Under the pieces are notes generated by a model. The model was given only the letters and a program-made list of their open reading frames with translations, made no database searches and was not told where the DNA came from. From a virus, in IMG/VR virus record IMGVR_UViG_3300003321_000927: a DNA stretch of 64,000 nt; one strand, written 5' to 3'. This document shows positions 14,964 to 63,620 of this stretch, in pieces. A program made the translations under genes and the position numbers. The stretch's first letter is position 1; each line of letters opens with the position of its first letter.

Positions 14964-14975
14964 TCGCGATGGTGC

Positions 14976-15281: not shown

Positions 15282-15326
15282 AGTGGGTGACGTGGCACAG
15301 TGCCGCTCATCGAGTACGTCCGAATA

Positions 15327-15344: not shown

Positions 15345-15357
15345 CTCGTCGACGTCT

Positions 15358-15445: not shown

Positions 15446-15452
15446 CTCACAA

Positions 15453-16003: not shown

Positions 16004-16009
16004 TCACCT

Positions 16010-16094
16010 CCCGAGGTGGTGAAATCTGGCGAGACACACCGGTCTCAGAAACCGGCGGCTTCGGGCCATGAGGGTTCGACTCCCTCCCTCGGGA
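16010..16094 (+). tRNA. tRNA-Leu: tRNA-Leu (anticodon CAG), long variable arm
   Basis: Acceptor CCCGAGG/CCTCGGG. Anticodon arm CCGGT-CTCAGAA-ACCGG. T-arm GAGGG-TTCGACT-CCCTC. Confidence 0.7.
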
Positions 16095-16238
16095 CTTCAG
16101 CTTGCTTGATCGCGTCTGCGGCATCGAGCCCGCCAGTAGCGCTGTCCGATCGCCGAGCCGACGCCGATCAAGACGCCCTTGCCGATCAGGATGAGCGCAC
16201 CGAAGAGCATGCTCGGACTGTAGAGGCCGGTCCGGTCG

Positions 16239-21236: not shown

Positions 21237-21372
21237 GTGCGAACCAGCCCGATCGAGACGCCGGTCGACTTCGGCTCCTTCGTGCGCCAGAGATGCATGC
21301 CGAGGAAGACCTTCTCCGCGAACAGAAAGCCGATGCGGAATACGCCATCGAGCGTGCCACAGACGAAGCTGA

Positions 21373-21597
21373 TCACGCTGCACGTCCTCTCCGAAGGCGC
21401 TTCGGGACGGCGGCGAGCGAGACGGCCTTTGCGTCCGGCACTAGCTGCGCGAGCCACTCCTTCTGCGTCTTCTGGTCGATGTAGTCGCCCTCCTCTCGCG
21501 CGCCCCAGCCTTCGGCGAGGCGGTAGTCGCCGGTGATCGGCACCCCATGCCGCCGCAAGTCCCTGAGGCGCCGGGCGTTCTTGCGTAGGAAACTCAT
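21373..21597 (-). CDS. hypothetical protein (74 aa)
   Basis: ORF directly upstream of RtcB. Confidence 0.4.
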   Translation of the reverse strand: MSFLRKNARRLRDLRRHGVPITGDYRLAEGWGAREEGDYIDQKTQKEWLAQLVPDAKAVSLAAVPKRLRRGRAA

Positions 21598-39800: not shown

Positions 39801-42800
39801 TAGAAGGTCTCGCCGGAAAGCGTCGAGAGCAGCTCCAGCTTTGACGCGCCAGACTTCAGGGCATCACCCATCACCCGCTGAACGAGCTGACGGCCGACTC
39901 CCTGCGAGTTGGCCGTCGTCGCGAGCGAGATCAGCTCTGCGCCCGACGCCTTGCCCTTCACCTTCCCGAAGACGTCGGTGATGCCGACGCGGTTGGCATC
40001 ACGCAGCGCGAGGTTGGCAACGCCAACCAGACCACCGGACTGGTCGCGGGCGACGTAGGTGCGCCCGCTCACCAGGTTGAGCAAGGTCTCTTCGGCGAGT
40101 TGCCTTCCGCCTGGCTTCCACTGCGCTGCGCGGACTTCGTTGAGGACTTCGACGCGCTTCTTAGGATCGAGGAGGCTGATTCCGTGCGCGAGTGTGATCT
40201 GGCCACGATCCGACCGGAGTGCGTTGATCACCCGCGAGCGACGGTCGGCAGGTGACAGTGTGTGGTCGGTCGCCAGCGACCCGAGGCCGGTGTTCTTGCC
40301 CCTGCGTGCATTCCTAAGCGTGTCCGCGACACTGCCCTCGCCACCGGGGTAGAAGGCCTCCTGCCACATCTCCTTGTAGGTGGCGGGGATCGAACGGAGG
40401 AAGCCGCGACGGTCATCACGCCATGTCTTCGCTCCTGCCGCCAGGCGCTCCCACTGCGCACGGCTGGCAACGCCGCTCGCAGCAACAGTCTCCCGCAACG
40501 CGCCCCCGGTCACCGGGATAAACTGCGCGCCGAAGAGAGCGAGTGCGCCGAAGAGACTCTTCGCGTTGCTTCCCGAGGGATCATCCGCGAACGCCCTACC
40601 CGTCTTGGCAACCGGCACGACACCGAAGCCGGAGGCGATCAGAGACCGGGCGATTTCGATGGGGTTGGACGCCGCCGCGAGCAGGCGCACGAGCGGCGAG
40701 TGCTCGTAGGCCTTGCGCAGAACGCGAAGATCCTCGGTGGTGTTCGGGGCATGATCCCCGCTCGTCGCTCCATGCGTCGCACGAACGAAAGCGCCGAGGC
40801 CTGACCTCGGATCGTATGTCGTCTTGACTGCGTTCGCGTGGTCGATCGAGTTGAGGATCCGTCCCTCCGACCAGGTCGGGTGCCATTGCTTGATCTGGCC
40901 GCGGATTTCGGCGTCGCTGTAGCCCTCGCGCCGCATGCGGCGGATCGCCTGGTCGATCGACTCCATCGGGGTCGCCGTCGTACGCTTGTGATGCCGGTCA
41001 GCGACGCCGCCGGTAGCGAAGCGCGAGATGCGATGAAAGAGGGTATGCGGGTCGTCGCTCGTGATGCCGAGGCGCGATGCGAGGCCGGACTGCTGGCGCT
41101 TGTTGAGGACGATCTCGCCCGGCGTCAGGAGCGCTGGGACGGAGTCGGTGCTCCCGCGACCAGGAACGACGGCGCCGGTGTTGGCACCGAAGAATCCCTG
41201 GTCGCGCAGGTTACGGCGGAGAAGGATCTGAAGCGGCTTTGGATACCTGTTGAGCCAGGCCTCGTACTCGTCCTTCGAGGGCCGACCGTGCTGAGGCGGT
41301 TCTCCGCCAACGTGGGCGGCGCGCATCGCAGCGATGATCGCCGGACGCGTCGGGATGCCGCTCGCGATCTTCGCATTCGTGATCGGGTTCGGAGCGGCAG
41401 CCGCTGTCACAGCCGCGGCGGCTCCGCCCTTGCGCGTCGAATCGGTCCGCTCCTCGGCGTTGATCGCGGCGATGCCCTGGGAGAGGTTGCGAAGGCGGGT
41501 CGTCAGGTCGTGCGTGCGCTTGTCGATCTTGTCGAGGTTGCGCTGGATGTCCTTGGTCAGGTTGTCGAAGTACTTCGACATCTGATCGGCGTATGCCTTG
41601 CCGCCGTCCTTGCCCGCCTGCTCGATCGAGACGTTGAAGCGGCGCATGATGCCCTGGACGTCCTTCTTGTACGTCGCGAGCGAGATCTTCCCCTTCTGGA
41701 ACAGCGTCTGCTCGCCTGCAAGGGCGGCCTTCAGGTTGTCCTCTGCGACCTGACGCGTGGCCTCGATGCTGCGCCGCAGGTCCGAGCGCTGGTCCTCGAT
41801 CGCCTGCCGTTCGAGCTTGCGCCGCTTGTCGAGGTCCTTCTTCGCGTTGTCGAGCGCCTTGTCGGCGGCCGTCCGCTCGGTCTTCGCACGCGCCTCCAGG
41901 CCGAACTTCCGCTGCGCGAGCTGTGCGTCCTCGATGTTCCGCTGCGCCTCGCGGATCGCTACCGGGTCGCCGACAAGCTCGGCCGTCCCCAGTGCCTGCC
42001 GCGAGTCGAAGAGATCGCGCTGGAAGTTGCGCTTCTCCTGGATCCGGTCGAGCGCGTCCAGCTCGCGCTCGGCAGGCGTCTTCCCGTTGACCTTGACGGT
42101 GAAGGTCGCGTTCGGCAACTTGACCTTCGCCGTGAGGTTGTCCTCCAGCTTCTGCGTCTTGTCGTCGAAGGCCGAGAGGATGCCGTCCGTCTTCCGGTCG
42201 AAGCTGTCGAGCATCCGGTCGGTGCGCGCCTCGAAGGCGTGCGTGACCGAGTCGCCGATGTGGTTGAAGAGCGTGTCGAACTGGTGCTGCGCAGCCTTGA
42301 CCTGCTGGTTGACCGGGTCGAGGATATTCGCCAGCTCGTCGTGACCGTGCTGGCGCAGGAAGTTTGCCGCGGCGACCGCGTTGGCGGTGAGCTGCTGTTC
42401 CTGCGCCTGCTGTAGGAGCGTCTCGGCAACGGCCTCCCGGCCCGCCTTGCGCGCAGCTTCTGCCTGCTTGACAAGGATGCCAATCTTCGGCAGCGTCCGG
42501 TCGAGCCCGTTCTCCAACTGCTTGAACAGCTCGTCGTTGACGTTGTTTTCGAGGTTCTTCTTCGCCGAGGCGCCGATCTTGCCGAGCCGCGCCTGGGCGT
42601 CGTGCGCATCGCGCTCGGACAGCCAGTGCCCGATCAGCGGCACGTGCTTGTCGATATGGTCGGCGAAAAACTGATCGAGCTTACCGAGCGCGGTGCGGCC
42701 CTTGCTCGTGCCATCGATAAGCTGCTCGATCGCAAGCGAGAGCCCGATGATCCCGCCCTTGCCGACAAGCGCGTTGAGGCCGATGGCACGAAGCGCGCCG

Positions 42801-46559: not shown

Positions 46560-47552
46560 CTAGCTGGTCGGGCCCGCCGTGTAGGACGCGACCGAGTTCG
46601 TCACGGCGACCGTGAAGAACTTGCCCGAGACCGTATCGAGGTGGACACGTGCCGTGACGTCGACCGCCTTCAGCACGTCCGCGCCGGAGATCGGAGCCGG
46701 AGCCGAGACCTCCTGGCAGGCCGGGACGGTGATGACGATCTTGTCCGTGCCGGTGCCCGTCGCCGTCAGACGGAAGCCGATGTCCGTCGGATCGACGTCG
46801 AGCGCGTACCGGTAGAACGTCTCCATCGTCGACCGGGCCGAGAACCGCACCTCGGCGTCCGCGTTACCGTACGGCAGCGCGTACAGCTTCCGCGAGCCGA
46901 GCACGGCCTCGTCGGTGTCGAGGTTGTTCTGGTACGTGACGCCCGCCGAGGCCGCGACGATCGCCGTCTGGTCGCTGAACGTGCCGTCCAGTGTCCATTC
47001 GACCGCGACCTGGGAGAACTTGAAGCGATTCGACGAGTCATACGAGGCGACCGGGGCCGTCTGCGTGTCGTCGAGATCGAGCGCGATCCAGTTCGCGTCC
47101 ATCTTGACGTAGTCGTTCGCCGCGATGTTCACCTGCAGCTCGTTGCCGCGCGCGTCCCAGAAGAGGTCGACGATGGCCGCCTGGCCTGCCGCCTTCGGGT
47201 CGTTGCGGATCGCGAAGATCGAGTGCGGCTCCGGCACCTTGCCAGCGGCCGTCGGGTCGAACGTGTGGACGTACGGCCCCGCGCCCGACGTGGCCGGGTT
47301 GCCGAGGAAGCCCGAGAGCACGCGCGGGAACGACGACGCGCGCGGCGCACCCGACATCGGCACCTCGAAGAAGCGGGTGCCGTAGTCGAGCCCGGTCGCG
47401 AAGCGGTTGCCGATCGTCTCCTGGATCGTAAGCTGCGTGGCATTGTCGTTCACGTCGGACGACTCGACCGGCACCCAGTACTCCATGCTGGTCACCTTCG
47501 TCCCCATGCCCGCTGGCTGAACTGCGAGTCCTACTGCATCGACGCGAGACAT
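46560..47552 (-). CDS. major tail (tube) protein
   Basis: 330-aa beta-rich protein in the canonical position upstream of the chaperone and TMP. Confidence 0.55.
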   Translation of the reverse strand: MSRVDAVGLAVQPAGMGTKVTSMEYWVPVESSDVNDNATQLTIQETIGNRFATGLDYGTRFFEVPMSGAPRASSFPRVLSGFLGNPATSGAGPYVHTFDPTAAGKVPEPHSIFAIRNDPKAAGQAAIVDLFWDARGNELQVNIAANDYVKMDANWIALDLDDTQTAPVASYDSSNRFKFSQVAVEWTLDGTFSDQTAIVAASAGVTYQNNLDTDEAVLGSRKLYALPYGNADAEVRFSARSTMETFYRYALDVDPTDIGFRLTATGTGTDKIVITVPACQEVSAPAPISGADVLKAVDVTARVHLDTVSGKFFTVAVTNSVASYTAGPTS

Positions 47553-48909: not shown

Positions 48910-49539
48910 CTAGCTGACCCGGTAGATCCGGTAGTTGTCGACAGTCTCCTGGTACTGGCTCGGGATCAGAGAGCTGAGCTTGACCGGGCGACCCTGGTTG
49001 CGCGCCAGCTCGGAGAGCTTCATCACGTCGTTCAGCACCCACTCGGCGGCGGTGCCGACCGCGACCTGGATGATGTCATCGGGGACAGCCGGAAAGCCCC
49101 AGTCGGTCGTGACCGAGAGCCACCAGCCCTGAGCGAGCGACTGGGTCGTCTTCACCTTCAGGTACTCGAAAGGCATGCCGGGTTCCGGATCGTCTGGGAG
49201 CGGCCAGACATCGCCGGTGTCCTCGGTGACGTCGAACGTGACGTACTCCTCGCGATCGGGAGACCAAAGGCGGACCTCGGTCGGCCAGGCGCTGAAGTCA
49301 CCCAGGCGGACGTACCCGCGCGTCACGTCCGCAGGCGTGACGAGCACGAAGCGGCGCTTGGCAAGCTCGGCCTCCGTCTGCTTGAACTCGCGCTGGGAGC
49401 GGCGCCGGATCGCCGTCGCCGAGGCATTGATCACGCGCACGAGCGTGCGCTGGCGGTTCGACATCTGCTGGTCGTCGTAGCCGAGTAGCTCCGCGACGTC
49501 CTCGACGTCACAGAGTGCATATGGGGAAAGCTGCGGCAT
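48910..49539 (-). CDS. head-tail adaptor (gp6-like connector)
   Basis: MPQLSPYALCDVEDVAELLGYDD...RQRTLVRVINAS is typical of an adaptor N-terminus. ATG at 49539. Confidence 0.5.
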   Translation of the reverse strand: MPQLSPYALCDVEDVAELLGYDDQQMSNRQRTLVRVINASATAIRRRSQREFKQTEAELAKRRFVLVTPADVTRGYVRLGDFSAWPTEVRLWSPDREEYVTFDVTEDTGDVWPLPDDPEPGMPFEYLKVKTTQSLAQGWWLSVTTDWGFPAVPDDIIQVAVGTAAEWVLNDVMKLSELARNQGRPVKLSSLIPSQYQETVDNYRIYRVS

Positions 49540-49550
49540 CGTCTCGGCCA

Positions 49551-49880
49551 CTAGATGTCTCCCTTCTCGACGACAAAGCGACCCTTGGCGGCGCACTTGC
49601 AGGCGCCTGTCCCTGCGAAATAGAGACGGCGCTCACCGTAGGTGTCGATGTCGAAGAAGAACTCGACGACCCCATCGGACGGGTTGTCCATCGAGGCGTT
49701 GACGCCCGCGGGCAGAGCCGGGCCGACGGAGCTGAAGGTGATCAGCGTGCCGTCACCCATGTTCCTAACCTTCAGCATCCAAGTCGTGGGCGTCGTCAAG
49801 ACCTGATCGGGCAGCGTCTTGCAGGTCGCCGTGACCTTGACCCGATTGCCTTCGACGTAAGAGTTGATCGATGCGGCCAT
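49551..49880 (-). CDS. hypothetical structural protein (109 aa, Ig-like?)
   Basis: Beta-rich small ORF. Confidence 0.45.
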   Translation of the reverse strand: MAASINSYVEGNRVKVTATCKTLPDQVLTTPTTWMLKVRNMGDGTLITFSSVGPALPAGVNASMDNPSDGVVEFFFDIDTYGERRLYFAGTGACKCAAKGRFVVEKGDI

Positions 49881-49885: not shown

Positions 49886-52834
49886 CTAATCCTCACCGTC
49901 GGACAGGACGACACTGCCAGTCGCCTCATCGGTCAATCCGAGCCAGTTCGCGATCTCGTCGGTAAGGGCCGCCGCTGCGGTCATGTTCGAATCGAGGAGA
50001 GCGAGCGCCACGGCCTCGTCGGTAAGCAGCGCCTGCGCAGTCGCTGCATCGACGAGCAGGACGACCCCTTCGCGCTCGAAGACGAAGAACTCCCACGGCT
50101 CCCGTGTCGTCTGCGCGACCTTCTGCAGGGCATCGGCCTGCATCAGAGCCATGACTCGGAGGCTCGATGCCTGCGCCTCCGCCCGGAGAGCGGCCAGGAG
50201 CTGGAGGCTCGCGAGCGCCTCGACAGAACCGAGAATCCGTCCGCCCAATCCGGTGAGCGCCTCGACCGGAGCGGAGCCACCGGCCGACCGCAACGCCTGC
50301 TTCAGGTCCGCGATCATCGAGGCGTTTTGGGATACGGGCCTGACTGCCTCCGCCCGCGCAGTACCCGCGACGTTAAATGCGCGCAGCGCCTCGTAGAGCG
50401 CAGCCGTCGTCGCCCTGATGCCGCGTCCTACGTCGAGGGATCCCTCCATCGTCCGCTCGACGAGCTGGAGGCTCTCCAGGGCCATCTCTGCCGTCTGAGA
50501 GACTGTCCCCGTCGTACGACTTTCCTCGGGCGCGCCGATCGTAGCCCGGATCTCCTGTAGGGCGCCGATCGGGGCCACGATCGTCGCTCTGGTACCTGCG
50601 AGCGCCTGGACAACCTCGACAGCCGTCGCGCTGACCGAGGCGAGAGATTCACCGTCGAGCTGGCCTGAGGCGGCGAGCCGCTTTAGGCTGTCGAGCATGG
50701 CGGAGCCGACCGAGCTGAGGCTGAGTAGCGTCTCGTATGGCGGCGCGAAAAGTGCAGCCACACCGCGCAGGACATCGGCTGGGTACTGCTGGACTACCTG
50801 GATGGCCTGCTCGCTTTCGACGCCTACCGAACCCATCAGCGCGAGTCCGAGCAACGTCTCGACCGGGAAGGTGGCAATGTTCGAGACGGCGTTCTGATTC
50901 TGCGTGTCGAATGGATCACCGAAGAACTGCTGGACGAGCTGCAGCGCCTCAACGGCAAGCTGGGAGGAAGCGACGATCGAGCCGAGGCTCTCTGCCTGAG
51001 AGGTGACACTGGACGCAAGCTCTGCGCCACTCTCGGCGACGAGTTCTTCAAGGATGGCGAGAGTCCTGATGGAGTCGGAAGGTGCGACGAGTGCCGCCAC
51101 AAAGGCCTGCAGCGTTTCGACGGAGACACCGGTGCTGCTTGCGATGCCGCGGAGCGCTTCGGCAATCGCCACATAGGTCCGCTGGACGATCTGAAGCGTC
51201 TCCGCGCTCGACTCACCGGTTTGCGCAATGATGCCCAGCGCCTCGTTAGCGCTGGTGGCGCTGGTGGCGATTTGCGCCGGAAGGTCGAGCGACCCGGTGC
51301 CCGCTCTTGTGACGCCTTGCAGAGCCTCTTCGCACATTGCGATCAGGGCAGCAAGACCGCGCAGCGAATCGAGCTGCGAAACGCTGGATGCAGCGAGCGT
51401 AGACAGCGATTCCTGGGGCGTCTGAGAAGGGCGAGAAAGAGTCGAAAGGATCTCCACGGCCTCAGCGGTTGTTATCACCACCGTCTGCAACGCTTCCACA
51501 GCCTCCCCCGATCCAGCGACTGCCAGCTTCAGCAGCGTGCTGAGCGCGGCAGAGCTTGTCACCGCGAGCTTCTTCAGAGCTTCGTATGGTTCGGCGAGGC
51601 CGACGATCGCCAACATCCGCAGCGTCTCCAGCGCGTTCGCCGCGCCAGCCGCATCCACCGCCTGCAGCGCCTCGTAGGCGCTGGCGCTGCCCGCGACTGC
51701 GAGCGCGTGCAGCGACTCCAGGGGCAGATTCGACGTTTGTGAAACGCTCGTCACGGAGGTCGACTCCAGGGGGCCGACCTCGTTCGCCTTGATGAGCTGG
51801 GTCGCCTCGCCCGGATCCTGAGCCGAGGCGGAGCGTCCCGCGAGCGCCTCAATTGCATCGATCGCCCGAACACCCGCGTAGGTCAAGGAGACGTTACCGC
51901 CGCCGAAATTGTCGATGATCGCGACAGTATTACGGATGTCCACCTGGATCACATCGGCACCCGTGCTAAGCGTGCCGGTCGTCTTGGTGAAGCTAAGGAC
52001 AAGCACCCCGTTCTGGTAGGCCGTCAGCGTCTGGCCAACTACCCGAAACACGATCACGTCGCCCGCCGAGAGCGTGATCCCCGCACTTGCAATCGGCAAG
52101 ATGCTGTCGTTCGGTGAAACGAATGCGACAGATCCCGCACGCCACAAACAGCGGTAGGCAGGCGACCTGACGGTAAACATGATCTCGTCCGACCCGGTGG
52201 GCGGGGTGACAACAGTGCAGAAGATTTCGCAATCTGGACCGAACGTCGACGGCAGCCACTTGTTGCCCTTCAAGCCAAACGTGTCCGTCGTGTTCTTGAC
52301 CTGGTTCGAAACGATGAACAGGGTGTTGCCCGAGTTTTGCGAGATCCCCCAGTTGCCGGTCGCGTTCAACGCCGAGTCGGCCCGGTTGAAGTCGTCGAGC
52401 ACCGGGGCTTGGGGGATCGCTGTGTTGACGCTGTAGAGCGTCTGCAGAGCCTCGACCGCCTCCGCCTTTGCGGTGGCACTTCTCGCAAGTAGATCGAGTG
52501 GATCACCTGATGTGAGAGCCAGCAAGCGCAGAGATTCGAGCGGGTCGCCCGCGGAGGCCTGAAGAACCTGAAGCAGATCGGTCGACGAGGCCAGCGCGCG
52601 CGTCAATGCCTGCAGGTTTTCGTAGGGAAGGGAGAGAAGAGACGCAACCCCTCCCGGCGCATCAACCTGAGCCACGGTCGGCTTAGCCAGGCCCTGGACG
52701 ATGTCAATGAACCCGCTCTTGAGGAGGGCAACTAGCTCGTCGAGCGTGAAGTCGTCAAAGCCTTGCCCGAGGCCGTTCTCGAATTCGAGCGGATTGCCAA
52801 GGAAATCCTCGGAGATAGGAACGAAGCTCGACAT
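49886..52834 (-). CDS. giant repeat protein (982 aa): LamG/ConA-like domain plus degenerate E-A-L-Q helical repeats; head or tail fiber/decoration candidate
   Basis: A DDFNRADSALNATGNW...beta domain, followed by more than 30 copies of ..E(A/S)L..L(A/S).. repeats. Paralogous to the 1670-aa protein. Confidence 0.6.
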   Translation of the reverse strand: MSSFVPISEDFLGNPLEFENGLGQGFDDFTLDELVALLKSGFIDIVQGLAKPTVAQVDAPGGVASLLSLPYENLQALTRALASSTDLLQVLQASAGDPLESLRLLALTSGDPLDLLARSATAKAEAVEALQTLYSVNTAIPQAPVLDDFNRADSALNATGNWGISQNSGNTLFIVSNQVKNTTDTFGLKGNKWLPSTFGPDCEIFCTVVTPPTGSDEIMFTVRSPAYRCLWRAGSVAFVSPNDSILPIASAGITLSAGDVIVFRVVGQTLTAYQNGVLVLSFTKTTGTLSTGADVIQVDIRNTVAIIDNFGGGNVSLTYAGVRAIDAIEALAGRSASAQDPGEATQLIKANEVGPLESTSVTSVSQTSNLPLESLHALAVAGSASAYEALQAVDAAGAANALETLRMLAIVGLAEPYEALKKLAVTSSAALSTLLKLAVAGSGEAVEALQTVVITTAEAVEILSTLSRPSQTPQESLSTLAASSVSQLDSLRGLAALIAMCEEALQGVTRAGTGSLDLPAQIATSATSANEALGIIAQTGESSAETLQIVQRTYVAIAEALRGIASSTGVSVETLQAFVAALVAPSDSIRTLAILEELVAESGAELASSVTSQAESLGSIVASSQLAVEALQLVQQFFGDPFDTQNQNAVSNIATFPVETLLGLALMGSVGVESEQAIQVVQQYPADVLRGVAALFAPPYETLLSLSSVGSAMLDSLKRLAASGQLDGESLASVSATAVEVVQALAGTRATIVAPIGALQEIRATIGAPEESRTTGTVSQTAEMALESLQLVERTMEGSLDVGRGIRATTAALYEALRAFNVAGTARAEAVRPVSQNASMIADLKQALRSAGGSAPVEALTGLGGRILGSVEALASLQLLAALRAEAQASSLRVMALMQADALQKVAQTTREPWEFFVFEREGVVLLVDAATAQALLTDEAVALALLDSNMTAAAALTDEIANWLGLTDEATGSVVLSDGED

Positions 52835-52880
52835 CGAAACACCGATGCCTAGCTACTGATCTTCGCGGCTACCATGGCTC

Positions 52881-53435
52881 TTAGAAGAACCCCACCACTG
52901 TCATCCTGGTACCTGCCTTCAGGTTGGCGCCGTTCGCTGACAAGATGGAGAGCCTGTCCACGCCTGTCGTGCCGCTGTAGTAGCCATAGATGATCTCTCG
53001 TCCCCAGGTGCCCCCGTCGCCGTATCCCTCGTCGATGACAGCGGCGACGTTCTTCGTGCCGAGGGGATCGGGGATCCTGACGATGGTCGAGGCGAAAAGG
53101 TCGCCGCTATTGGCGGGGCACTCCGTGTACCAACCTCCGACGGTGGCTTGCAGTGATTGTCCTGAGCCGCCTGAGAAGAACGCGAACCGCGTCAAGTAGT
53201 TGCTCGTCGTGGCGTCGTTGTTGACCCGGATCAGTATCGCGTCAGTCGACGCGGCCCTGGCAGAGCATACGGAGATGTGCGCCTCGATGGCCTTAGTCCC
53301 AACTGGCACAAGGCCCGTTCCCGTGTCGAGCGAGGCTGCGGCGACTGCAAGCGTCGAGTCGAACAGGATCGTAGACCTTCCAACCACGTTCCCGTGGTAC
53401 GAGATCTGACCAGAGGTCTGCCTTTCACGGCGCAT
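52881..53435 (-). CDS. structural protein (184 aa)
   Basis: ATG at 53435 shares a nucleotide with the upstream TAA. Beta-rich. Confidence 0.45.
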   Translation of the reverse strand: MRRERQTSGQISYHGNVVGRSTILFDSTLAVAAASLDTGTGLVPVGTKAIEAHISVCSARAASTDAILIRVNNDATTSNYLTRFAFFSGGSGQSLQATVGGWYTECPANSGDLFASTIVRIPDPLGTKNVAAVIDEGYGDGGTWGREIIYGYYSGTTGVDRLSILSANGANLKAGTRMTVVGFF

Positions 53436-53755
53436 TAGGTGATTTCCGCGCCGCCGACGTACAGCGTGATCTTTGTATCGGCGTCCGCCTTGGCGTAAAT
53501 CGTGTCCGTCGCCGCGAGGGGAAGATAGACATCGTCCTCCCATGCCCCACCGGCGGGGATGGTGATGATCTCGGTGATCGCATTCGCAGCAGCCGATCCG
53601 TTTCGGAAAAGTTCGAGCGTATGCGAGGACGCGTCCTTGTTGACGCAACGGATGTGACGCACAACGGTCGTGGTCGATCCAGGCACCGTATAGACCGTGC
53701 CTCCTGCCGCAGTAGGCTGGCCGTGGTAGAGCGTCTTAGGGGTTGTCGCAGCCAT
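53435..53755 (-). CDS. structural protein (106 aa)
   Basis: Thr/Ala-rich beta protein. Confidence 0.45.
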   Translation of the reverse strand: MAATTPKTLYHGQPTAAGGTVYTVPGSTTTVVRHIRCVNKDASSHTLELFRNGSAAANAITEIITIPAGGAWEDDVYLPLAATDTIYAKADADTKITLYVGGAEIT

Positions 53756-53787
53756 CGCTCAGATGATGGCGCTGCCGGTGGACGACA

Positions 53788-56700
53788 TCAGTCACCCTCG
53801 AAGGTCTGAATGACCGACTTCAGGGTGTCGGCGAGGAGCGCCAGTGTCCGCGCGTAACCAGCGGCCTCGTCGATCTGCGCCGCAACGGGTGCGATCGTCC
53901 CAAGTCCGGCGTTGTAGTGCGCGAGGACCTGACTCTGCGTCAGCTCGTAGTTGTAGAAGGCGACCTCGTCGAGGAAGTGGTCGCCGTTCTGGTCGCCGTG
54001 GCCGATCGACATTGAGCCGGTGCCGGAGTTCGAGGCGAACGAGAAGCCCGTATCGTTGCGGTACTGGACGCCGTTGTAGTAGCTCTTCAGGGTGTGCGCG
54101 GTGGCGTTGTAGGCCATGACGATATGGAACTTCACGCCGACGTTGACCCCGTCCGGAGCGATCTGACTCTCGAATGGAGAGCGGCGGTAGGTGAGTCGCC
54201 CGGCGGGGGTGTAGCGGTAGAAGAGCCAGTTCCCCTGCGCCATCACCGAGCCGAACTGCGAGCCCGAGTTGGATGCCGGGTTGATCCAGAACTCATTCGT
54301 GAAGCTGCCGTTGCACTGGAGATCGGAGGAGAACGGGACGACCAACTGCCCGGCCGCCGTGAAGCGCGCGGAACGGCCTGTCAGGATCAGCGGCGACTGA
54401 TTGATCGTTGCGCTGCTATAGGTGCCGTCGAGACCCGCGACCGAGTCCGTTCCAGTCGTCCCGCTCGTCTCATCGAGCTTCCAGTAGTGAGTTGGGGAGT
54501 CGGCGAGCACGACGCTGCTGTACTGAACGAAGTTGTTCGGGTCCTGCAGTACCTGCGTAATGGTCCGAAGCAGATCCTGGATCAGCGTGCCACTCCCGGA
54601 GACGCGCTGAAGCGCGTCCAGCGCACCCGCCTCGGAAGCGGAGATGCCGCTGAGTGCCTCCAGGGCAACCAAGGCAGTCTGGGACACCAGTCCGCTCGTC
54701 GACTGGCTCTCGAACGGGGAGACAAGCAGCGCGGAAAGGCTCTGCAGGCTCTCGAAGGCAGTCATCACGTTGGACGTGACAGGCCTGAGGCTCTCGATCG
54801 TCTCGACGCCGGGGATGACGAGAGACGACGCCGACTCTGCACTCTCTTGCGACGAAGCAGCAAGCGCCTTGGGCGCGTCAAGGACCGTAAGCCCACGAGT
54901 AGCTGCCGTCGTCACCCGGAAGTTATCGAGCCGCGTAGCGCCACTTGCACCACTGAAGTCGAAGCCGATCCCGATGCCGACCTGACCGGCGCCTGTGATG
55001 CTGCTGTCGCTAAAGGTCGCGACCTCAACGCCATTCTTCGTCAACGCCATCGAGGTACCGGTGAGCTTGAAGCCGAGCCTGTCGCCCGCCGAGAAACTGA
55101 ACGAGGGGAAGCCTCCAAAAGCCGAGGATCCCGAACCGTTGACCACCTTGTCAACGTGAACGGTCTGCTCGACACAATAAAAGTTCGCCTGGTAGTAGGA
55201 GGTGTGGTCGGCGCTGACGCGCGCCATGATCAGAACCTTTTCTCCCGTGCCGCTGTTGCCGAGGACGGGCACGTCCACCTCGATCCACTGGTCTGCCTGC
55301 ACCACATCAACCCACGTGGCGAGATTGGCCGCGCCCGCGCTCGTGCTGGTCGGGGCTACGCGATTGCCCACGATCTGCAGGCGAGGAGCCGTCGTCCAGT
55401 TTGTCCACTTTCCATCGCTGGAAAGTGGGTTCTCGTCTGGTCGGTTAAAGTCGTCGAAGGGACTATCGGCAGACGAGACCAGCCGTAGCGCCTCAGCGCC
55501 TCCGGGTCCCAGGATGGCGAGCTGCTTCAGCACATCAACGATCTCGGGATTCGCGATCGCGAGAGCCCGCAGGGACTCATAGGCGTTGACGGCGCCCGTG
55601 ATAGCCAACTGTCGTGTCGCCTCCAGCACGTCAGCGGGACCGACGATCGCGAGCGCCTTCAGCGCTTCGAATGCGTCTGTGGAGCTGGAGATCGCAAGCA
55701 GCTTCAACGCCTCGACCGCCTCGGCCTCGGTGATCGCAAGTCCTTGCAGTGCCTCCAGGATGAGCTGCGCCGTCTGGGTTACGGGAGTAGTGGCGATGGA
55801 CTGGGTGGTGTCGATCTGCTCCGCGCCAACAAGAGATGTGGCGTTGATCAGATATGTCACGCCAACAAACGACCAGGACGACCCGCCGTTGAGCGTCCTG
55901 AGACCATTGTACGTCACGTTGAAAGTGTTATTCGCACGGACGCGCCAGCAATTCGAAGTGTCCGGGGATCCAGACGACCGGAACGAGACCCAATACGTCG
56001 TCCCCGCCGCGAGCGACACGAGCGAGCTGGTGAACTCGATCGAGTAGACCGTGCGCGTGTTGGAAGTCGGCACAAGATACTTCGTTGCGAGCACCGAACC
56101 AGGGTTGCCGCTCGAATCCGAGCGCACCTCGCAGATGATTGAGCTGGGCGGCGTTCCTACCCCCTCGATATCCACCGTCACGTTCTGCAACTTGCCAGCC
56201 ACGGACGGCGTGAAGTCCTTCGCGACGTAGGTGAGCGTGTCGTTCAACGGCTGGAAGGCTGTCCCAGGCGACTGCGACGAGGTGTCGAGTACGGTCGCTG
56301 TGTCCCCCGCAATGTTCTTCAACGCCCGCAGTGCGTCGAGCTGCTCCTGCAGTGTGGAGGCGATGGTCTGCTTAGCGTCGATTTCGCCAAGGGCCACAGG
56401 GCCCGCCGTGTAGGTGGCATAGATGAAGTGCTCACCAGTCGAGACCGTCGAGCCGCCAAACGGCGTATCCATCCCATCAGAGAAGGTGTCGAGCGTGTTG
56501 ATGTCGGCCTTCTGTCCTGTGCCCGAAACGAACGGGAGCGACCGGGCACCTCCAGACGCTGCAACGGCAAGCCAGTACGTCCCCGCAGGAAGAAGAACGG
56601 GATTGGCAAGCGCGAGCATCGACCAAGCGCTGGGGGCGGTATTGGCAAGCGTTACCGTTCCGGGCGTCTGGGCGATCAGCGCGTCTGGGGATCCCGAGCT

Positions 56701-58800
56701 GTCGGTGTAAATGCCCGCGCGGTACTGATGCGGCCCCCCCGTGTTGGCGGTCGTGTAGAAGCTAATCGACGTCACTAGCGCCGCCTCCGAGAGGGTGAAC
56801 TTCGAGGCGCGCTTGTCGCCCGCGCTGAACGGTGAGGCCGATTCGAGGCCCGTCGGGGTTGTCGCGCGACCGTAGGTCTTCGTCTGTGACGCGATCCCCT
56901 GCAGTGCCTCCACCCTCTCTGTCGGGCCGGTGATGGAGAGGGACTGCTGGGTGGCGATCTGCGCGCCAGGAATCGCGGTGACAAGGAGCGACAGGGTGTA
57001 ACCGCCAGCGATCCAGGTCGAACCCCCGTCGTTTGATTCCTTCGCGGTCGCTGTGATGTTCGATCCGGAAAGCGTGATGTAGTTCGAGTTGTCGATGGCG
57101 CCTGACCGGGAGATTGTCACCCAGTAAGTTCTGCCTGCCTGCACGCTACCGATGCCGACGACACGCGAAGAGAACGAGCTATCGAACGACGATGCCGCGA
57201 CCGACGTCGATGCCAGCACCGCACCGGGGCTGCCCGAGGAGTCCGCGCGCAGCTCGAAGACAATGTTGTCCGAGGGCGCCCCGGACTTGCGCGCCCTGAT
57301 CTGCACAAACGCGCCACCATCGAGGCTCGACGTAAACGAGTCGGCTGTCTTGTACCCGATGCCGCCCGACCCGGCGAGTTTCAGGTCAACCTGCTCGTTC
57401 TGCGCCTGCGCCGTCGTGTCCCGAAGCGATGTCGCTCCTGGCCCCTGAATTGTCTGCAGCGCCTCCGAGGGCTCCGAGAGGGTGACCGCAAGCCCCTGCG
57501 AGACGGCGACCTGCTCTTGCTGGGCAAGCGTCGCCGAGTAGTAGAGGTCGTCAGATTGCGCCTGCCAGACCGAAGCCCCGAACAACGCATCGAGATCTGC
57601 GCTTGCAAGCTGGGCGTTCACCTGCGTCGTCAGCCCGGCGAGGTAGTAGTTGCTCGTGCTGCGCGCGCCATCGCGGCGGAAGACGACCCAGTAGGTTCCC
57701 GGCTGGATCGGCGCGTTCGGCGTGAAATTGTACGTCGTGATGCTAGTCGTCAGCGACGACCCCGCGATCGTACCGAGATTCGCGTTCACGATTGAGCCCG
57801 CGCTTGTGTCGGGAAGGCCCGCGCTGTCCCGGCGCAGATCGAGCACGACGTTGTCACTCGGGGCTCCCACCTTGGCAAGGGCGACAGTAAGAGAGGTCAT
57901 GACCGACCCGACCGGCACGACGATCTGCTGCGCTTGCATCTGGGTGACCGCGCCCGCGGCAACTCCTTGGAAGGAGCGGCCGGTCGTTCCGACCACACCT
58001 GTCTGCTGGATGATTTTGCCAGCACTGACGAGCTGCAACGCCTCGACTTCTTCGACGATCGTTGGGGTGAGCTTCTGGCTCGCCTCAATTCGCTCGTCGG
58101 TCGTCACGGCGAGTCCCTGGCTAACGAGGACCGGCTCTGCAACCGTCGGCTTCAGAAGCTGCGCACTTGTATAGGGCAGCCCAGCCGTCGCCGATACCGC
58201 GATCGTAGGCGTGTAGGTGACGGTGACGACGACTCGGTCGACGCCGATCGAGACTGCGGCAGAGTTCGAGTTGCCGGTCTTCGGAACCGCCGTGATCCGC
58301 AGCTTGATCGTCGCCGAGGGCGCCTGCAGCGCCGAAGGAACGGCCTGCGTCGTTCCCGTCCGCGTCGACCAGGTTGTCTGGGCGGCGGCGGGCGTCGCCG
58401 CGGAGGCCTGGATCGTCGCCTGCAGCGTTCCGCCTGAGTCGTAGAACTCCGACGGTCCGACCACGCCCGCCGCGCCGCTCGTGAACTCCGGCTGCGCCCA
58501 GTCGTGCGAAAGGTTGACGTTGGTCACGATCGCCCCACTGGGAACGCCGAGATCAGTCCAGGCCCCTGTCCACTCCCAGTAGGGCGTGCCGTTCGTCTGG
58601 TTCTTACCGGTGCGACGCGCGCGCAGGCCGCCGTTACCGGCGTCGGTGTCGTTCGTCGACTCGTACGTCGCAGTCGTGTCGAGCGTGCCGGTTTCGTTTG
58701 TGGCGCCGTTCGTGTTGTGCGCCCACGATCCGCCCTGCGCCGTATACGGCAACGCCTGCGTTGCAGTATTGAAGCTGAAGGTCTTGGTGACTGTGGCCAC
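53788..58800 (-). CDS. giant structural protein (about 1670 aa): Ig-like N-terminal repeats, ALQ helical repeats, two LamG/ConA-like domains
   Basis: GTG at 58800 (TAGTG junction). The C-terminal lectin-like domain spans WKLDETSGTTGTD...NGDHFLDEVAFYNYELT. An internal DDFNRPDENP module is shared with the 982-aa protein. Confidence 0.6.
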   Translation of the reverse strand: MATVTKTFSFNTATQALPYTAQGGSWAHNTNGATNETGTLDTTATYESTNDTDAGNGGLRARRTGKNQTNGTPYWEWTGAWTDLGVPSGAIVTNVNLSHDWAQPEFTSGAAGVVGPSEFYDSGGTLQATIQASAATPAAAQTTWSTRTGTTQAVPSALQAPSATIKLRITAVPKTGNSNSAAVSIGVDRVVVTVTYTPTIAVSATAGLPYTSAQLLKPTVAEPVLVSQGLAVTTDERIEASQKLTPTIVEEVEALQLVSAGKIIQQTGVVGTTGRSFQGVAAGAVTQMQAQQIVVPVGSVMTSLTVALAKVGAPSDNVVLDLRRDSAGLPDTSAGSIVNANLGTIAGSSLTTSITTYNFTPNAPIQPGTYWVVFRRDGARSTSNYYLAGLTTQVNAQLASADLDALFGASVWQAQSDDLYYSATLAQQEQVAVSQGLAVTLSEPSEALQTIQGPGATSLRDTTAQAQNEQVDLKLAGSGGIGYKTADSFTSSLDGGAFVQIRARKSGAPSDNIVFELRADSSGSPGAVLASTSVAASSFDSSFSSRVVGIGSVQAGRTYWVTISRSGAIDNSNYITLSGSNITATAKESNDGGSTWIAGGYTLSLLVTAIPGAQIATQQSLSITGPTERVEALQGIASQTKTYGRATTPTGLESASPFSAGDKRASKFTLSEAALVTSISFYTTANTGGPHQYRAGIYTDSSGSPDALIAQTPGTVTLANTAPSAWSMLALANPVLLPAGTYWLAVAASGGARSLPFVSGTGQKADINTLDTFSDGMDTPFGGSTVSTGEHFIYATYTAGPVALGEIDAKQTIASTLQEQLDALRALKNIAGDTATVLDTSSQSPGTAFQPLNDTLTYVAKDFTPSVAGKLQNVTVDIEGVGTPPSSIICEVRSDSSGNPGSVLATKYLVPTSNTRTVYSIEFTSSLVSLAAGTTYWVSFRSSGSPDTSNCWRVRANNTFNVTYNGLRTLNGGSSWSFVGVTYLINATSLVGAEQIDTTQSIATTPVTQTAQLILEALQGLAITEAEAVEALKLLAISSSTDAFEALKALAIVGPADVLEATRQLAITGAVNAYESLRALAIANPEIVDVLKQLAILGPGGAEALRLVSSADSPFDDFNRPDENPLSSDGKWTNWTTAPRLQIVGNRVAPTSTSAGAANLATWVDVVQADQWIEVDVPVLGNSGTGEKVLIMARVSADHTSYYQANFYCVEQTVHVDKVVNGSGSSAFGGFPSFSFSAGDRLGFKLTGTSMALTKNGVEVATFSDSSITGAGQVGIGIGFDFSGASGATRLDNFRVTTAATRGLTVLDAPKALAASSQESAESASSLVIPGVETIESLRPVTSNVMTAFESLQSLSALLVSPFESQSTSGLVSQTALVALEALSGISASEAGALDALQRVSGSGTLIQDLLRTITQVLQDPNNFVQYSSVVLADSPTHYWKLDETSGTTGTDSVAGLDGTYSSATINQSPLILTGRSARFTAAGQLVVPFSSDLQCNGSFTNEFWINPASNSGSQFGSVMAQGNWLFYRYTPAGRLTYRRSPFESQIAPDGVNVGVKFHIVMAYNATAHTLKSYYNGVQYRNDTGFSFASNSGTGSMSIGHGDQNGDHFLDEVAFYNYELTQSQVLAHYNAGLGTIAPVAAQIDEAAGYARTLALLADTLKSVIQTFEGD

Positions 58801-59300
58801 TACTTGGCCGCCTGAATGCAGTGCAGCGCGCGAGGACGATTCGCCAGCTCGCCACCTGGGCTGTGCGAGCACTTCATGACGACGGGGTCATCGAGGTGCT
58901 GCTTGATGTGCCGGATCTCCGTCTCGCGCCAGACATTGAAGATCAGAAGCACGATCAAGAGCAGCTCGACGAAGCGCGTGAAGCTCCAGGAGATCTTCTC
59001 CACGATCATGTCCTCGTCCGTGACGACGGACTCGCCCCCGCGGGCGATGCCGCTCTCATTCATGAGTCCGCCGCTCAGGTAAGGGCGCCAGCCGAGCGAG
59101 AGAATCAGCACGCCGAGATGGAGGTCGAAATAGGGCCCGTAGCTCAGGCCTTGGAAGCGTCCCCCGGAGACCGAGCGACGCTTGAAGTCGAGGTGTATGC
59201 CGAGAGAGAGCCAGCCGTTGAGCTGCCACTGAAGCATCCACAGCTCGCCGTAGCGAATGTTCCAGCCAGTCAAGCGATGAATCCAGGATGGCAGCCGCAT
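58800..59300 (-). CDS. hypothetical membrane-like protein (about 167 aa)
   Basis: Internal ATG at 59300. Hydrophobic segments are present. Confidence 0.35.
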   Translation of the reverse strand: MRLPSWIHRLTGWNIRYGELWMLQWQLNGWLSLGIHLDFKRRSVSGGRFQGLSYGPYFDLHLGVLILSLGWRPYLSGGLMNESGIARGGESVVTDEDMIVEKISWSFTRFVELLLIVLLIFNVWRETEIRHIKQHLDDPVVMKCSHSPGGELANRPRALHCIQAAK

Positions 59301-59381
59301 CGGCCTCAGTCTCACGTCAGAGCCGGACGACAAGGGCGCCCGAAGGCGCCCCTGTCGATGTCAACCCCTCGGCGAGTTCGA

Positions 59382-60119
59382 CTAGGTCGTCTGCCCGTCG
59401 ATCTCTGACGTGTACGTCGTCTTCAGTGCGGCGTTGTTCGTCGCGAGCGAGAGCCGCAGCCAGACGCTCTGGTAGGCGCCGGAGCTGAGGTTCTGTGAGT
59501 TCGCGACGTTCGCGGCCGTCGAGGCGAACGTGATGCCCGCCGGGGCCGTCGTGCGGTCGGCGGCCGTGGTCGAGTCGGAGAGCGTCCCTTCCAGGCCATG
59601 ATCGATCAGGCCCGACGGGTCGGCGTTCTCCAGCACCTGCGCCGAGGTCAGCGCGAGCGAGCCGTTCGTGTTCTTCCACACGAACTTCGCGTAGCGCGTG
59701 ATCGTGCCCGAAGGCGACGATGCGATCTGCTGGAAGATGGCCCGGAAGCCCTTCTCCCCGACCGGGATCGTGCGGAAGGTGGTGGAGGACGTGTTGCCCG
59801 CAACGGTGATCGTGCCGATCGCGGCCGAGGCGAGCGTCACCGAGAGGATGCGCTCGTACGTGTTCGTCGAGAGCTTTGGCGTCGTGCCCGTGAGCGCGAA
59901 GGTCTCGCTGGAGAGCGTACCGTCCGACTTACGGCCGACGAGCGTGACGTTCTGCGTGTCCGACGCCGACGACGAGGTGAACTTCACGATCTCCGCCGAG
60001 GAGATCTGGGTGAAGTCGACGCGGATCGTCGCGTCGATGGCGCCACCATTCGTGCCCGAATCGGCTGTGGGCATGTTCGCCGTGGCGTAGGCGACGAGGT
60101 CTGTCGAGACGATCGACAT
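59382..60119 (-). CDS. beta-rich virion structural protein (245 aa)
   Basis: GGAGG lies 9 nt upstream of the ATG at 60119. Ser/Thr-rich with Ig-like character. Confidence 0.5.
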   Translation of the reverse strand: MSIVSTDLVAYATANMPTADSGTNGGAIDATIRVDFTQISSAEIVKFTSSSASDTQNVTLVGRKSDGTLSSETFALTGTTPKLSTNTYERILSVTLASAAIGTITVAGNTSSTTFRTIPVGEKGFRAIFQQIASSPSGTITRYAKFVWKNTNGSLALTSAQVLENADPSGLIDHGLEGTLSDSTTAADRTTAPAGITFASTAANVANSQNLSSGAYQSVWLRLSLATNNAALKTTYTSEIDGQTT

Positions 60120-60123
60120 CTAC

Positions 60124-60297
60124 CTATTCCTCCCCCGGAGCGCTCGGCTCCACGTCGATCACGGACTCGGAGACGCCCTGGCCGACGAGAGCGGACTCGC
60201 TCTGCGCCGCGAGGTGACCGTCGTACCACGGTCCATCCCAGTAGCCCGGCTTGAAGGTGCCGTCCTCCTGAAGCTCCGGCGGGTGCCATTCGCCCAT
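60124..60297 (-). CDS. small hypothetical protein (57 aa)
   Basis: Fills the gap between tightly packed genes. Translates as MGEWHPPELQEDGTF.... Not in the ORF track. Confidence 0.3.
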   Translation of the reverse strand: MGEWHPPELQEDGTFKPGYWDGPWYDGHLAAQSESALVGQGVSESVIDVEPSAPGEE

Positions 60298-60300
60298 GGC

Positions 60301-60504
60301 CTAGGCGAGCTTCCGCTCTGCCTCTTCTGGAGAGTCCAGCGTGCTGTCGTCGAGGCCTTCCGTAACCTCCAGAACGCCAGCAGCGTGAGCAGCCGCCGCG
60401 AGGTGGACGAGTTCCTCGCTCGGCGACTCGACGACGTGGTCGCCCTTGCCGTAGGCGTCGTGACCCTCGGGCTCCCACGGAGTGTGAACGGTGAACGCAA
60501 GCAT
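60301..60504 (-). CDS. small acidic protein (67 aa)
   Basis: Internal ATG at 60504 preceded by AAGGAAA. Confidence 0.35.
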   Translation of the reverse strand: MLAFTVHTPWEPEGHDAYGKGDHVVESPSEELVHLAAAAHAAGVLEVTEGLDDSTLDSPEEAERKLA

Positions 60505-61423: not shown

Positions 61424-61690
61424 CTAGAAGAGAGCGACCATGTTCGTCGCCGTCGTGCCGGTCGCGTTCACCCGAGAGAAGCGAATCGGCAGCAGCGTGC
61501 CAGCCGCGACACCGGTAAAGACGACGGTGTTCCCGTCCATCATCACGACCGAGACATTCCCGGCACCGCCGACCCAAAGTGCGCGCGCGAGGAAGTCGAG
61601 GTCGGTGGCATCACTAGGGGCAACCACCTCTGCATGACCGTTCGGGCGGAAGAGTCCCTGGGGGTCGTGTGCGTACGGATCCTGAGCCAT
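61424..61690 (-). CDS. small head-associated protein (88 aa)
   Basis: GAGGAG RBS before the ATG at 61690. Directly downstream of the capsid gene. Confidence 0.4.
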   Translation of the reverse strand: MAQDPYAHDPQGLFRPNGHAEVVAPSDATDLDFLARALWVGGAGNVSVVMMDGNTVVFTGVAAGTLLPIRFSRVNATGTTATNMVALF

Positions 61691-62204: not shown

Positions 62205-63620
62205 CTACGACCAGCCGGTCGAGGCCTTCTCTGCGGTCGTGAAGTCGACCTCGCAGAAGGCGTCGGGGCGCGGCACTGCCAGCGCGTACCGACCCTCGGC
62301 CAGGACGGCGATCATGTTCCGGACGAACCAGTCCGAGTGGCTGTCCGTCGCGGTGATCGAGACGTCCTCCTGGACGTACAGGACGGCCTGCTTCCAGTCG
62401 CCGACGACCGGCGAGCCCTGGTCGACCGTGACATCCTCGATCATCGGCAGGCCCCAGATCTGGGCCTCACCGGCGACCGACGGCGGGCCGAAGTAGTACT
62501 GGCCCATCGCGTCCTTCGCCAGGCGGATCTCCTGGTAGTCGTTCGGGTGCAGGAGCACCGCCGTCGGCTCCAGGTAGGCCAGGCGGATCTTCGTGATCGC
62601 GGCCATGATCCGCTCGATCTTGCGGGCAGCCGTGATGCCGTTGACGACATCGTCCTGCGACTGGACGCCCCAGGAGAGGATGCCCTTCAGGTTCGGCGCG
62701 GAGCCGTCACCCTTCAGGATCTGCGTGTTCAGGCGCCGCGCCACACCATCGACGAGCTGGGTGTCGATCAGCGTCCGGAGCTGCGCCATGTCGGCGAGCG
62801 CCGCCCGCGTCGTCGGGATGTAGTGGGCGATGATCTCGGTGTTCGTGTGCTGCAGGCTGAAGCTCATCCCCGACTCGGGCTTCGTACCGGACGCACCGGT
62901 CGTTGCCGTCGCCTCGGCGACCTCGGCTGCCGCTGCGGCCACCGCCGTCTGCTGGATCCACTCGATCACCGAGGTGTCGGTCGCACCGACGGTGATGAGG
63001 TTGCGCAGCTTCAGCGGCGCCTGGAGCAGCTCGACGAAGCCCGGCAGGCGCGTCGGCTGGACGAGCAGCGTGCCCTGGTTGGTCGACGTCGCCGTCGGCG
63101 AACCGGACTGCAGCAGCGTCTTCATCGCGTAGCGGGACTGGATCTGCGCGATGTGCTCCTCGCGGGACATGCCCTTGACGCCCCAACGGAAGGCGCCCTT
63201 CTGCTGGACGGCCTTGCGGAACTCCGCGTAGCCCTCGTCGTCCGTGAAGCGCTCGCCCGGCGTCTTGTACTGCAGCGCCGCGGCGTACTCCCCGTCCTTC
63301 GAGTCCATGTCGAAGGGGCTCGTCTTCGACGGCGGCGTGAGGCCGTCCATCTCCAGAGCCTGACCGTACGCCTCCTCCAGACCCTTCATCTCCTCGACGA
63401 TCGTCTGGTAGGACGCCGATGCATCGTGAGCCTTCGCGACAAGTTCCTTGCCCTCGTCGCTGCTGGCCTTGAAGCCCTCGGCATTGATCTGATCGCGCAG
63501 CGGCTCGAAGACCGCCCACGCCGAGGCAGCGTCGGCCCGCTTGGCCTGCAGCTCCTCGCGAATCTTCGTGGAAGTCGACACTTCTGTTTGTCTCCTGTGA
63601 CTAGTGGGACGGCCAGACAA
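62205..63620 (-). CDS. major capsid protein, HK97 fold, with N-terminal helical (delta/scaffold-like) domain
   Basis: PF05065-like landmarks LLVQPTRLPGFVELL, SFSLQHTNTEIIAHYIPTTRAAL and FVRNMIAVLAEGRYALAV. The N-terminus is a coiled coil. Confidence 0.8.
   Translation of the reverse strand: MSGRPTSHRRQTEVSTSTKIREELQAKRADAASAWAVFEPLRDQINAEGFKASSDEGKELVAKAHDASASYQTIVEEMKGLEEAYGQALEMDGLTPPSKTSPFDMDSKDGEYAAALQYKTPGERFTDDEGYAEFRKAVQQKGAFRWGVKGMSREEHIAQIQSRYAMKTLLQSGSPTATSTNQGTLLVQPTRLPGFVELLQAPLKLRNLITVGATDTSVIEWIQQTAVAAAAAEVAEATATTGASGTKPESGMSFSLQHTNTEIIAHYIPTTRAALADMAQLRTLIDTQLVDGVARRLNTQILKGDGSAPNLKGILSWGVQSQDDVVNGITAARKIERIMAAITKIRLAYLEPTAVLLHPNDYQEIRLAKDAMGQYYFGPPSVAGEAQIWGLPMIEDVTVDQGSPVVGDWKQAVLYVQEDVSITATDSHSDWFVRNMIAVLAEGRYALAVPRPDAFCEVDFTTAEKASTGWS

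Follow-up and report, generated by a model that had tools for sequence, protein, structure and literature searches.

Between the major capsid gene and the neck genes of the phage represented by IMG/VR virus record IMGVR_UViG_3300003321_000927 lie two very large genes, whose products of 982 and 1,670 residues combine long runs of short repeats with lectin-like domains. This is an unusual place for fibre genes, as the first-pass annotation of the 64,000-nucleotide stretch analysed (referred to here as the window) had pointed out: the genes for canonical tail-tip proteins sit after the tape measure gene, at 28–36 kb. What the two proteins do, and on which part of the virion they would be carried, are the questions raised by this locus. 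Both are read here as virion-associated adhesin fibres, an assignment well supported by their place in the late structural operon, receptor-binding-type folds of carbohydrate-binding modules (CBMs), fibre-like repeats and location in a hypervariable segment. The gene for a 245-residue protein encoded upstream and a repeat-fibre gene appear to form a previously undescribed two-component cassette that is mobile across unrelated phage backbones.

The gene for the 982-residue protein spans positions 49886–52834 and that for the 1,670-residue protein positions 53788–58800; these and the other features of the window described below are on the minus strand unless stated otherwise. The open reading frame of the larger gene extends over 53788–58872, and its real start is taken to be a GTG codon at 58800 because the gene called on a second contig begins there. 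Both giant frames noted in the first-pass annotation hold up in the open reading frames themselves, in the second assembly and in the GC content at third codon positions (GC3), which is 0.76 in the called frame of the 982-residue protein and 0.80 in that of the larger one. The second contig (the P0003 contig, L002; Logan assembly of SRR1926128; 8,785 bp) is 100% identical in DNA to positions 51500–60284 of the window, which excludes an assembler-specific artefact; this is agreement between assemblies and does not imply that the samples are independent. An identical copy of the 982-residue protein (P0001) is encoded on a 71.4-kb JGI contig.

That the repeat genes are an assembly artefact, or that their products are non-virion proteins (for example, secreted or displayed on the cell surface during infection), is the most improbable of the explanations considered here. 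Besides the identical DNA in the second assembly, there are no long DNA repeats to mislead an assembler, the genes lie within the late structural operon and share its strand, inspection of the sequences by eye revealed no signal peptide in either giant protein, and the family of the DDFNR domain described below is annotated as a virion structural protein.

Architecture of the two fibre proteins

Common to both proteins is a shaft of short repeats. The core motif [EDQ][ASTVIL][LIVMF]xx[LIVMF] occurs 44 times in the 982-residue protein, compared with 8.3 ± 2.7 times in shuffled sequences, with a modal spacing of 14 residues and multiples at 28 and 42; in a relative (P0004), 12 of 17 motif spacings are exactly 14. 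The repeats described in the first-pass annotation are real, but their period is 14 residues rather than 11–14. Alignment of 266 in-register units from 15 proteins gives the unit consensus x-x-P(50%)-Φ-E(85%)/D-A/S-L(68%)-x-G/A-[ILV](97%)-A/S-x-T/S-x, and each unit is predicted to form a short capped helix followed by a turn; the shaft is probably an oligomer. No Pfam model matches the shaft, and the repeats of one relative (P0127) match phrog_6079, annotated as 'tail protein'. At the DNA level, no relevant array was reported by Tandem Repeats Finder (TRF), and even the best direct repeats do not exceed 42 nucleotides, with 60–86% identity. Because near-identical DNA repeats are absent, the protein repeats are considered old and degenerate, and not a slippage-prone array.

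Breaking the 14-residue runs at irregular intervals is a punctuation element (approximately E-S-Q/R-x-x-x-V-[ST]-Q-T-A-x-[LM]-x-[LF]-E-[AS]-L). Examples in the 982-residue protein are at residues 355–375 (approximately 51710–51772) and 772–790 (approximately 50465–50521), and the element is found in many family members, including P0127, P0002 and L011. It may act as a hinge or a register reset.

In the 982-residue protein, about six repeat units (52418–52657) precede a ConA-like jelly-roll domain, referred to here as the DDFNR domain (residues 140–318; 51881–52417), and the main shaft of 14-residue units, about 41 by length, follows it (50135–51880). Closing the protein is a C-terminal segment of about 80 residues (49889–50134) with an acidic end (PWEFFVFEREG...LSDGED), a segment common to the relatives P0002, P0125 and P0126.

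The 1,670-residue protein begins with a domain of about 205 residues (58186–58800) that is β-rich by sequence and has no Pfam or PHROG match. It is followed by four homologous modules of about 155 residues each, D1 (57517–58017), D2 (56965–57438), D3 (56392–56883) and D4 (55825–56289), which together span 55825–58017, share an invariant G-T-Y-W motif in a MAFFT alignment and are separated from their neighbours by one to three 14-residue units. The first-pass annotation had read this region as an Ig-like array; neither protein has an Ig or fn3 match in Pfam, as Ig-like decoration proteins of the Hoc type would have, and the modules, at about 155 residues, are longer than Ig domains. D3 reaches 25.4 bits with DUF4082 (PF13313; E = 1.5e-5), below the gathering cut-off of 28.4, and D1, D2 and D4 have no DUF4082 match in Pfam; assignment of all four modules to this family is not supported, as only D3 matches and does so below threshold. 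D1, D2 and D4 match the unannotated phrog_35103 (best 1.7e-9). The shaft continues in a first segment (55471–55803), recognized by BLASTP to the repeats of the 982-residue protein and by motif spacing, which leads to a second DDFNR-type domain, ConA-like and CBM-like (54901–55461), a second shaft segment identified in the same two ways (54541–54900) and, at the C terminus, a Laminin_G_3 domain of the ConA-like lectin/glucanase type (53926–54339), which matches PF13385 with 45.3 bits (cut-off 27.6, E = 1.3e-11). Laid out in this manner, the larger protein can be described as beads on a string, with single 14-residue units linking the globular modules.

The relationship between the two proteins is one of shared parts. 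BLASTP aligns them with 34% identity over 148 residues in the repeats (E = 1e-14) and with 23% identity over 387 residues in the region spanning the DDFNR domain (E = 2e-9). Their DDFNR domains are only 24% identical to each other, and the copy in the 982-residue protein is nearer to other family members (25–37%) than to the copy in the larger protein. The two proteins are therefore module-sharing relatives rather than recent duplicates; the repeats and the DDFNR domain that the first-pass annotation had named as common to both are confirmed.

Structure models were made for the DDFNR domain and the 245-residue protein. The DDFNR domain is predicted to adopt a curved two-sheet β-sandwich, as in the ConA-like lectin/glucanase superfamily (LamG-like jelly roll), and neither copy matches a Pfam model even at E = 10. 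Both copies match phrog_2804, annotated as 'virion structural protein' in the category 'head and packaging' (1.4e-12, and 4.3e-9 for the copy in the larger protein), with weak matches to the 'tail protein' or 'minor tail protein' families phrog_4978, phrog_1304 and phrog_737. Comparison of the DDFNR family with the Laminin_G_3 domains of the cassette by hhalign gave a probability of 67% (E = 5e-5), which is suggestive only. The earlier call of lectin-like β-domains of the ConA/LamG type, at coordinates that agree with those of the 982-residue protein's DDFNR domain and of the Laminin_G_3 domain, is borne out by the Laminin_G_3 match above its cut-off and by the modelled fold and structural relatives of the DDFNR domain.

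An exhaustive HMMER search with the 982-residue protein against 1.84 billion representative sequences returned 517 relatives at E ≤ 0.001, of which about a dozen are long repeat proteins, the remainder being mostly standalone DDFNR proteins of about 200 residues; 92 of 135 full-length matches to the domain are in proteins of at most 260 residues. On one contig (L013, 1488–5117), a standalone DDFNR protein of 220 residues is encoded after a 649-residue Laminin_G_3 protein, with an Acyl_transf_3 gene on the opposite strand, an arrangement indicating that the DDFNR module is used also in ordinary-looking tail-fibre regions.

Searches by tblastn of 50,697 GenBank phage records found no match for either giant protein, the DDFNR domain, the 245-residue protein or the regular repeat stretch of P0127. 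Sequence searches of the PDB gave no useful match, and a word-indexed homologue search with the 1,670-residue protein returned only the query itself. A scan of bacterial and archaeal genomes yielded a single contig from a metagenome-assembled genome, with no host clue. With a capsid protein that shares only about 33% identity with those of Gordonia and Arthrobacter phages, the phage belongs to an uncultured lineage.

The 245-residue partner and the mobile cassette

The upstream member of the cassette is the gene for the 245-residue protein (59382–60119), which is modelled as two β-sandwich domains and belongs to a family of more than 753 relatives, all annotated as 'hypothetical'. On every contig reached through relatives of the 982-residue protein, the repeat protein is preceded by a homologue of the 245-residue protein. 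In 10 of 13 informative contexts (the window, L001, the P0125 contig, L003, L005, L007, L008, L010, L011 and L014), a 14-residue-repeat protein is encoded within about 6.5 kb downstream of the 245-residue protein gene, and the genes between the two are not conserved. The backbones that carry the cassette include three capsid families, siphovirus tubes and different terminase contexts; L014 has a sheath-like gene, called from its N-terminal sequence only, with no profile search.

The position of the cassette differs from backbone to backbone. It lies between capsid and neck genes in the window, L001, the P0125 contig and L011; directly before the tail tube gene in L007; shortly before the sheath-like gene in L014, with two small genes between; between the portal and capsid genes in L003; between the terminase and portal genes in L015; and before the endolysin gene, the terminase gene or both, at the end of the late region, in L010 and L008. 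Counted by context, six have the cassette between head and tail genes, and two more have it next to portal or terminase genes.

Two further arrangements were noted around this gene family. Exactly between the 245-residue family gene and the repeat-fibre gene of L011 is a gene for a 253-residue protein (10906–11667), probably a homing endonuclease, with a GIY-YIG-like N terminus recognized by eye and a faint NUMOD3 match. In L009 (9919–11824) and L006 (10001–11654) are two diverged tandem paralogues of the 245-residue protein, 29–33% identical to the window protein; the capsid protein is a different one and there is no recognizable 14-residue-repeat protein nearby. The 245-residue protein may serve other appendages too.

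Comparison with L001 delimits the exchanged part of the locus. The window and L001 share 76–90% DNA identity over the capsid gene, the 245-residue protein gene and the region from the last 80 codons of the 982-residue protein gene through the tube gene, whereas positions 50128–59383 of the window have no DNA similarity to L001, where other repeat and LamG proteins are encoded in the matching region. The GC content of this segment is 0.61–0.62, compared with 0.64–0.67 in the flanks, and its GC3 is 0.71–0.80, compared with 0.92–0.93 in the capsid, tube and 245-residue protein genes. The absence of similarity between these flanks is expected for a determinant of host range and, together with the lower GC and GC3, marks out an exchangeable host-interaction module; the low GC and GC3 would also fit a cassette acquired recently from a source of lower GC. 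The first-pass annotation had expected the repeat DNA to be a hotspot of recombination and length variation: the region is indeed hypervariable relative to L001, but it contains no near-identical DNA repeats, and a hotspot of this kind is not supported at the DNA level.

This variability bears on the possibility that the giant proteins are capsid decoration or cement proteins, which would mainly stabilize the head and carry their lectin domains incidentally. Cement proteins are small and conserved, whereas the proteins described here have 982–1,670 residues, are encoded where related phages differ most and show no similarity to known decoration folds, making a role of this kind very unlikely even though, in this lineage, their genes come straight after the capsid gene and phrog_2804 is filed under 'head and packaging'. 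The GC3 of the 245-residue protein gene, the highest of its module in the window and level with the capsid and tube genes, would also fit a decoration protein, but it ranks only mid-to-high in five other backbones. GC3 as a proxy for the abundance of the 245-residue protein is accordingly treated as weak evidence.

Proposed attachment to the virion and relation to known fibres

We consider it probable that the giant proteins are accessory fibres anchored away from the baseplate through the 245-residue protein, additional to the canonical tail-tip proteins. In each fibre, globular ConA-like sugar-binding domains would break up a shaft of 14-residue units, with a DDFNR domain in both fibres and a Laminin_G_3 domain and four DUF4082-like modules in the larger one. 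The fibre proteins are likely to bind glycans, and long flexible fibres bearing many weak lectin sites would permit reversible, high-avidity binding of host surface glycans, which could increase the adsorption rate and tune the host range ahead of commitment by the tail tip. On the virion side, the 245-residue protein would hold the fibres as an anchor or collar.

Attachment to the head or neck, in the manner of whiskers or head fibres, is plausible and is favoured over the baseplate because this lineage has the cassette between its capsid and neck genes, and because it moves between tail types and the canonical tail-tip genes lie elsewhere. The head fibres or decoration suggested in the first-pass annotation had gene position as their sole basis, and in that form the suggestion is not upheld, as the position of the cassette varies among phages. 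A more far-reaching version, in which the 245-residue protein and the repeat lectin proteins are a horizontally mobile head or neck fibre kit that docks on the HK97-fold capsid or on the portal or neck and displays exchangeable giant fibres, with the shaft as a new fold, is possible and is put forward tentatively.

Several observations weigh against these assignments. Structurally, the DDFNR domain is nearest to baseplate or tail receptor-binding modules of mycobacteriophages, the closest known being the C-terminal domain of TM4 gp23 (PDB 9n6a) and the BppU–CBM of Douge gp23 (PDB 8zdo), with an identity of only 11%. The model of the 245-residue protein resembles none of the known decoration, collar or adaptor proteins; in L004, L009 and L015, the gene for this protein occurs without a recognizable 14-residue-repeat protein; and in L005, as in L010 and L008, the cassette is at the end of the late region, the usual site of tail-fibre genes. 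Homology to the head fibre of phi29 was rejected at the sequence level, with an hhalign probability of 0.1% for the shaft.

The Douge module is a CBM that has been shown experimentally to bind mycobacterial arabinomannan/lipoarabinomannan (LAM) and α-glucan fragments (PMC13033339). The TM4 and Douge modules belong to short baseplate proteins whose genes follow that of the tape measure, unlike the DDFNR domain of the window, which lies within the 14-residue-repeat shaft of giant proteins encoded between capsid and neck genes.

On the strength of these mycobacteriophage matches, the giant proteins could alternatively be side tail fibres or baseplate-associated receptor-binding proteins that are encoded outside the tail module, are fixed to the tail tip or tube and serve in primary or secondary receptor binding. 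The weak 'tail protein' PHROG matches (phrog_4978, phrog_1304 and phrog_737, and phrog_6079 for the P0127 repeats), the cassettes at the end of the late operon in L010, L008 and L005, and the standalone DDFNR protein in the tail-fibre-like context of L013 point the same way. We regard this explanation as rather unlikely, because most contexts place the cassette upstream of tube or neck genes or among head-morphogenesis genes, separate canonical tail-tip genes are present, and the cassette crosses backbones with different tails, which would be harder for a part that docks on a specific baseplate. Furthermore, a known tail-fibre family in a standard position, the outcome that the first-pass annotation had named as contradicting its proposal, was not what the profile searches returned: at the whole-protein level, neither giant falls in a known tail-fibre family of Pfam or PHROG, and both genes precede those for the neck and tube.

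Accessory CBM-bearing phage fibres, the kind proposed here, are already known. Neck passage structures (NPS) of lactococcal siphophages (936/Skunavirus group, TP901-1) are such fibres and rank, with the head fibre of phi29 and the glycan-binding surface of Douge, as the nearest analogues in function. These non-essential collar fibres have a helical shaft that ends in carbohydrate-binding modules, and attachment to the portal has been proposed for the NPS collar of TP901-1 (PMC6669499). The NPS is a single protein of about 500–900 residues, comprising an N-terminal BppU-like ring domain, a coiled-coil shaft and a C-terminal CBM, whereas the cassette of the window has a separate, constant 245-residue partner, a 14-residue-repeat shaft and several lectin domains strung along it. 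Profile and structure comparisons gave no match to BppU for the fibre N termini or the 245-residue protein, and no similarity to NPS was found by sequence or profile.

The shaft of phi29 gp8.5 is built of short helix-plus-turn repeats of about 13 residues in a three-stranded supercoil (PMC6542822). Its gene directly follows the capsid gene, and the short-repeat shaft is a likeness to the fibres of the window; unlike these, gp8.5 has 280 residues, an N-terminal twin-β-barrel base and no lectin domains. Long flexible head fibres make the first host contact in Agrobacterium phage 7-7-1 and Caulobacter phage phiCbK, and the long capsid fibres of phage 7-7-1 are still without an assigned gene (PMC12796354). 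No evidence of homology to the fibres of these flagellotropic phages was found, and the 50,697 GenBank phage records contain no relative of the cassette.

Adsorption rate and host range are set by accessory glycan-binding fibres, which have been characterized closely in only a few cultured phage groups. New here are the unannotated shaft repeat, the widespread DDFNR family of binding modules and the constant 245-residue partner, as a portable cassette in uncultured phages. If the giant proteins are head or neck fibres, they would provide candidate genes for appendages that are often seen by microscopy and rarely assigned to genes, and the cassette would also be a natural scaffold displaying lectin domains. 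A mobile kit docking on the capsid or neck would, in turn, give a family of genes to the long fibres seen by electron microscopy on the capsid or collar of environmental phages.

Other genes of the window

The late operon on the minus strand runs from the capsid gene through small genes, the two giant genes and a gene for a 109-residue protein to the adaptor-like, tube, tape measure and tail-tip-sized genes. The order of capsid, giant and adaptor genes given in the first-pass annotation is confirmed by matches of the HK97-type major capsid gene (62205–63620) to phrog_10 (1.5e-58) and of the adaptor-like gene (48910–49596) to phrog_442 (1.8e-4, a weak match). The tail tube gene (46560–47552) matches PF18906, and the tape measure gene (36812–45481), encoding 2,889 residues, matches PF10145. 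On the 3′ side of the latter, at 28–36 kb, are the tail-tip-sized genes for 268, 1,286 and 421 residues, and an endolysin-like gene is at 28607–29563. Three small genes were called on L002: one for 166 residues with one hydrophobic segment, between the 245-residue protein gene and the large fibre gene (58800–59300), and two between the fibre genes, for 106 residues (53435–53755) and 184 residues (52881–53435). None of the three has a family match in Pfam or PHROG.

Just after the capsid gene is a gene for an 88-residue protein (61424–61690) that matches phrog_12296, annotated as 'tail fiber protein' (9.7e-22), and is 61% conserved in L001; for a gene of this size and position the label looks doubtful, and the product may be a small head protein instead. 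The gene on the 5′ side of the 245-residue protein gene (60127–60504) is 94% identical to that of a 126-residue protein of L001 and contains an in-frame amber TAG codon at approximately 60301–60303, where L001 has Glu, with an ATG two codons on. The amber codon could reflect a nonsense mutation, a split gene or a sequencing error; no suppressor tRNA for it is present among the 20 tRNAs of the window.

Within the tape measure protein are weak matches to a GNAT acetyltransferase domain (residues 1806–1900) and to DUF7178. Tape measure proteins of relatives have 1,728 and 2,757 residues, compared with 2,889 in the window, so that tail length seems widely variable within the lineage.

The 20 tRNA genes, for 18 amino acids, are at 12432–16095 on the plus strand, and a gene for an RtcB-type RNA ligase is at 19815–21383 (PF01139, 9.5e-60); the tRNA array and the ligase together suggest countermeasures against tRNA-cleaving host defences. 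This DNA, which comes from an environmental metagenome and represents a phage of soil type, has a GC content of about 65% over the window. A gene of the SPFH/Band_7 family is at 21707–22675 (PF01145, 5.7e-18), and a Band_7 gene is also present in L003, an unrelated backbone that bears the cassette.

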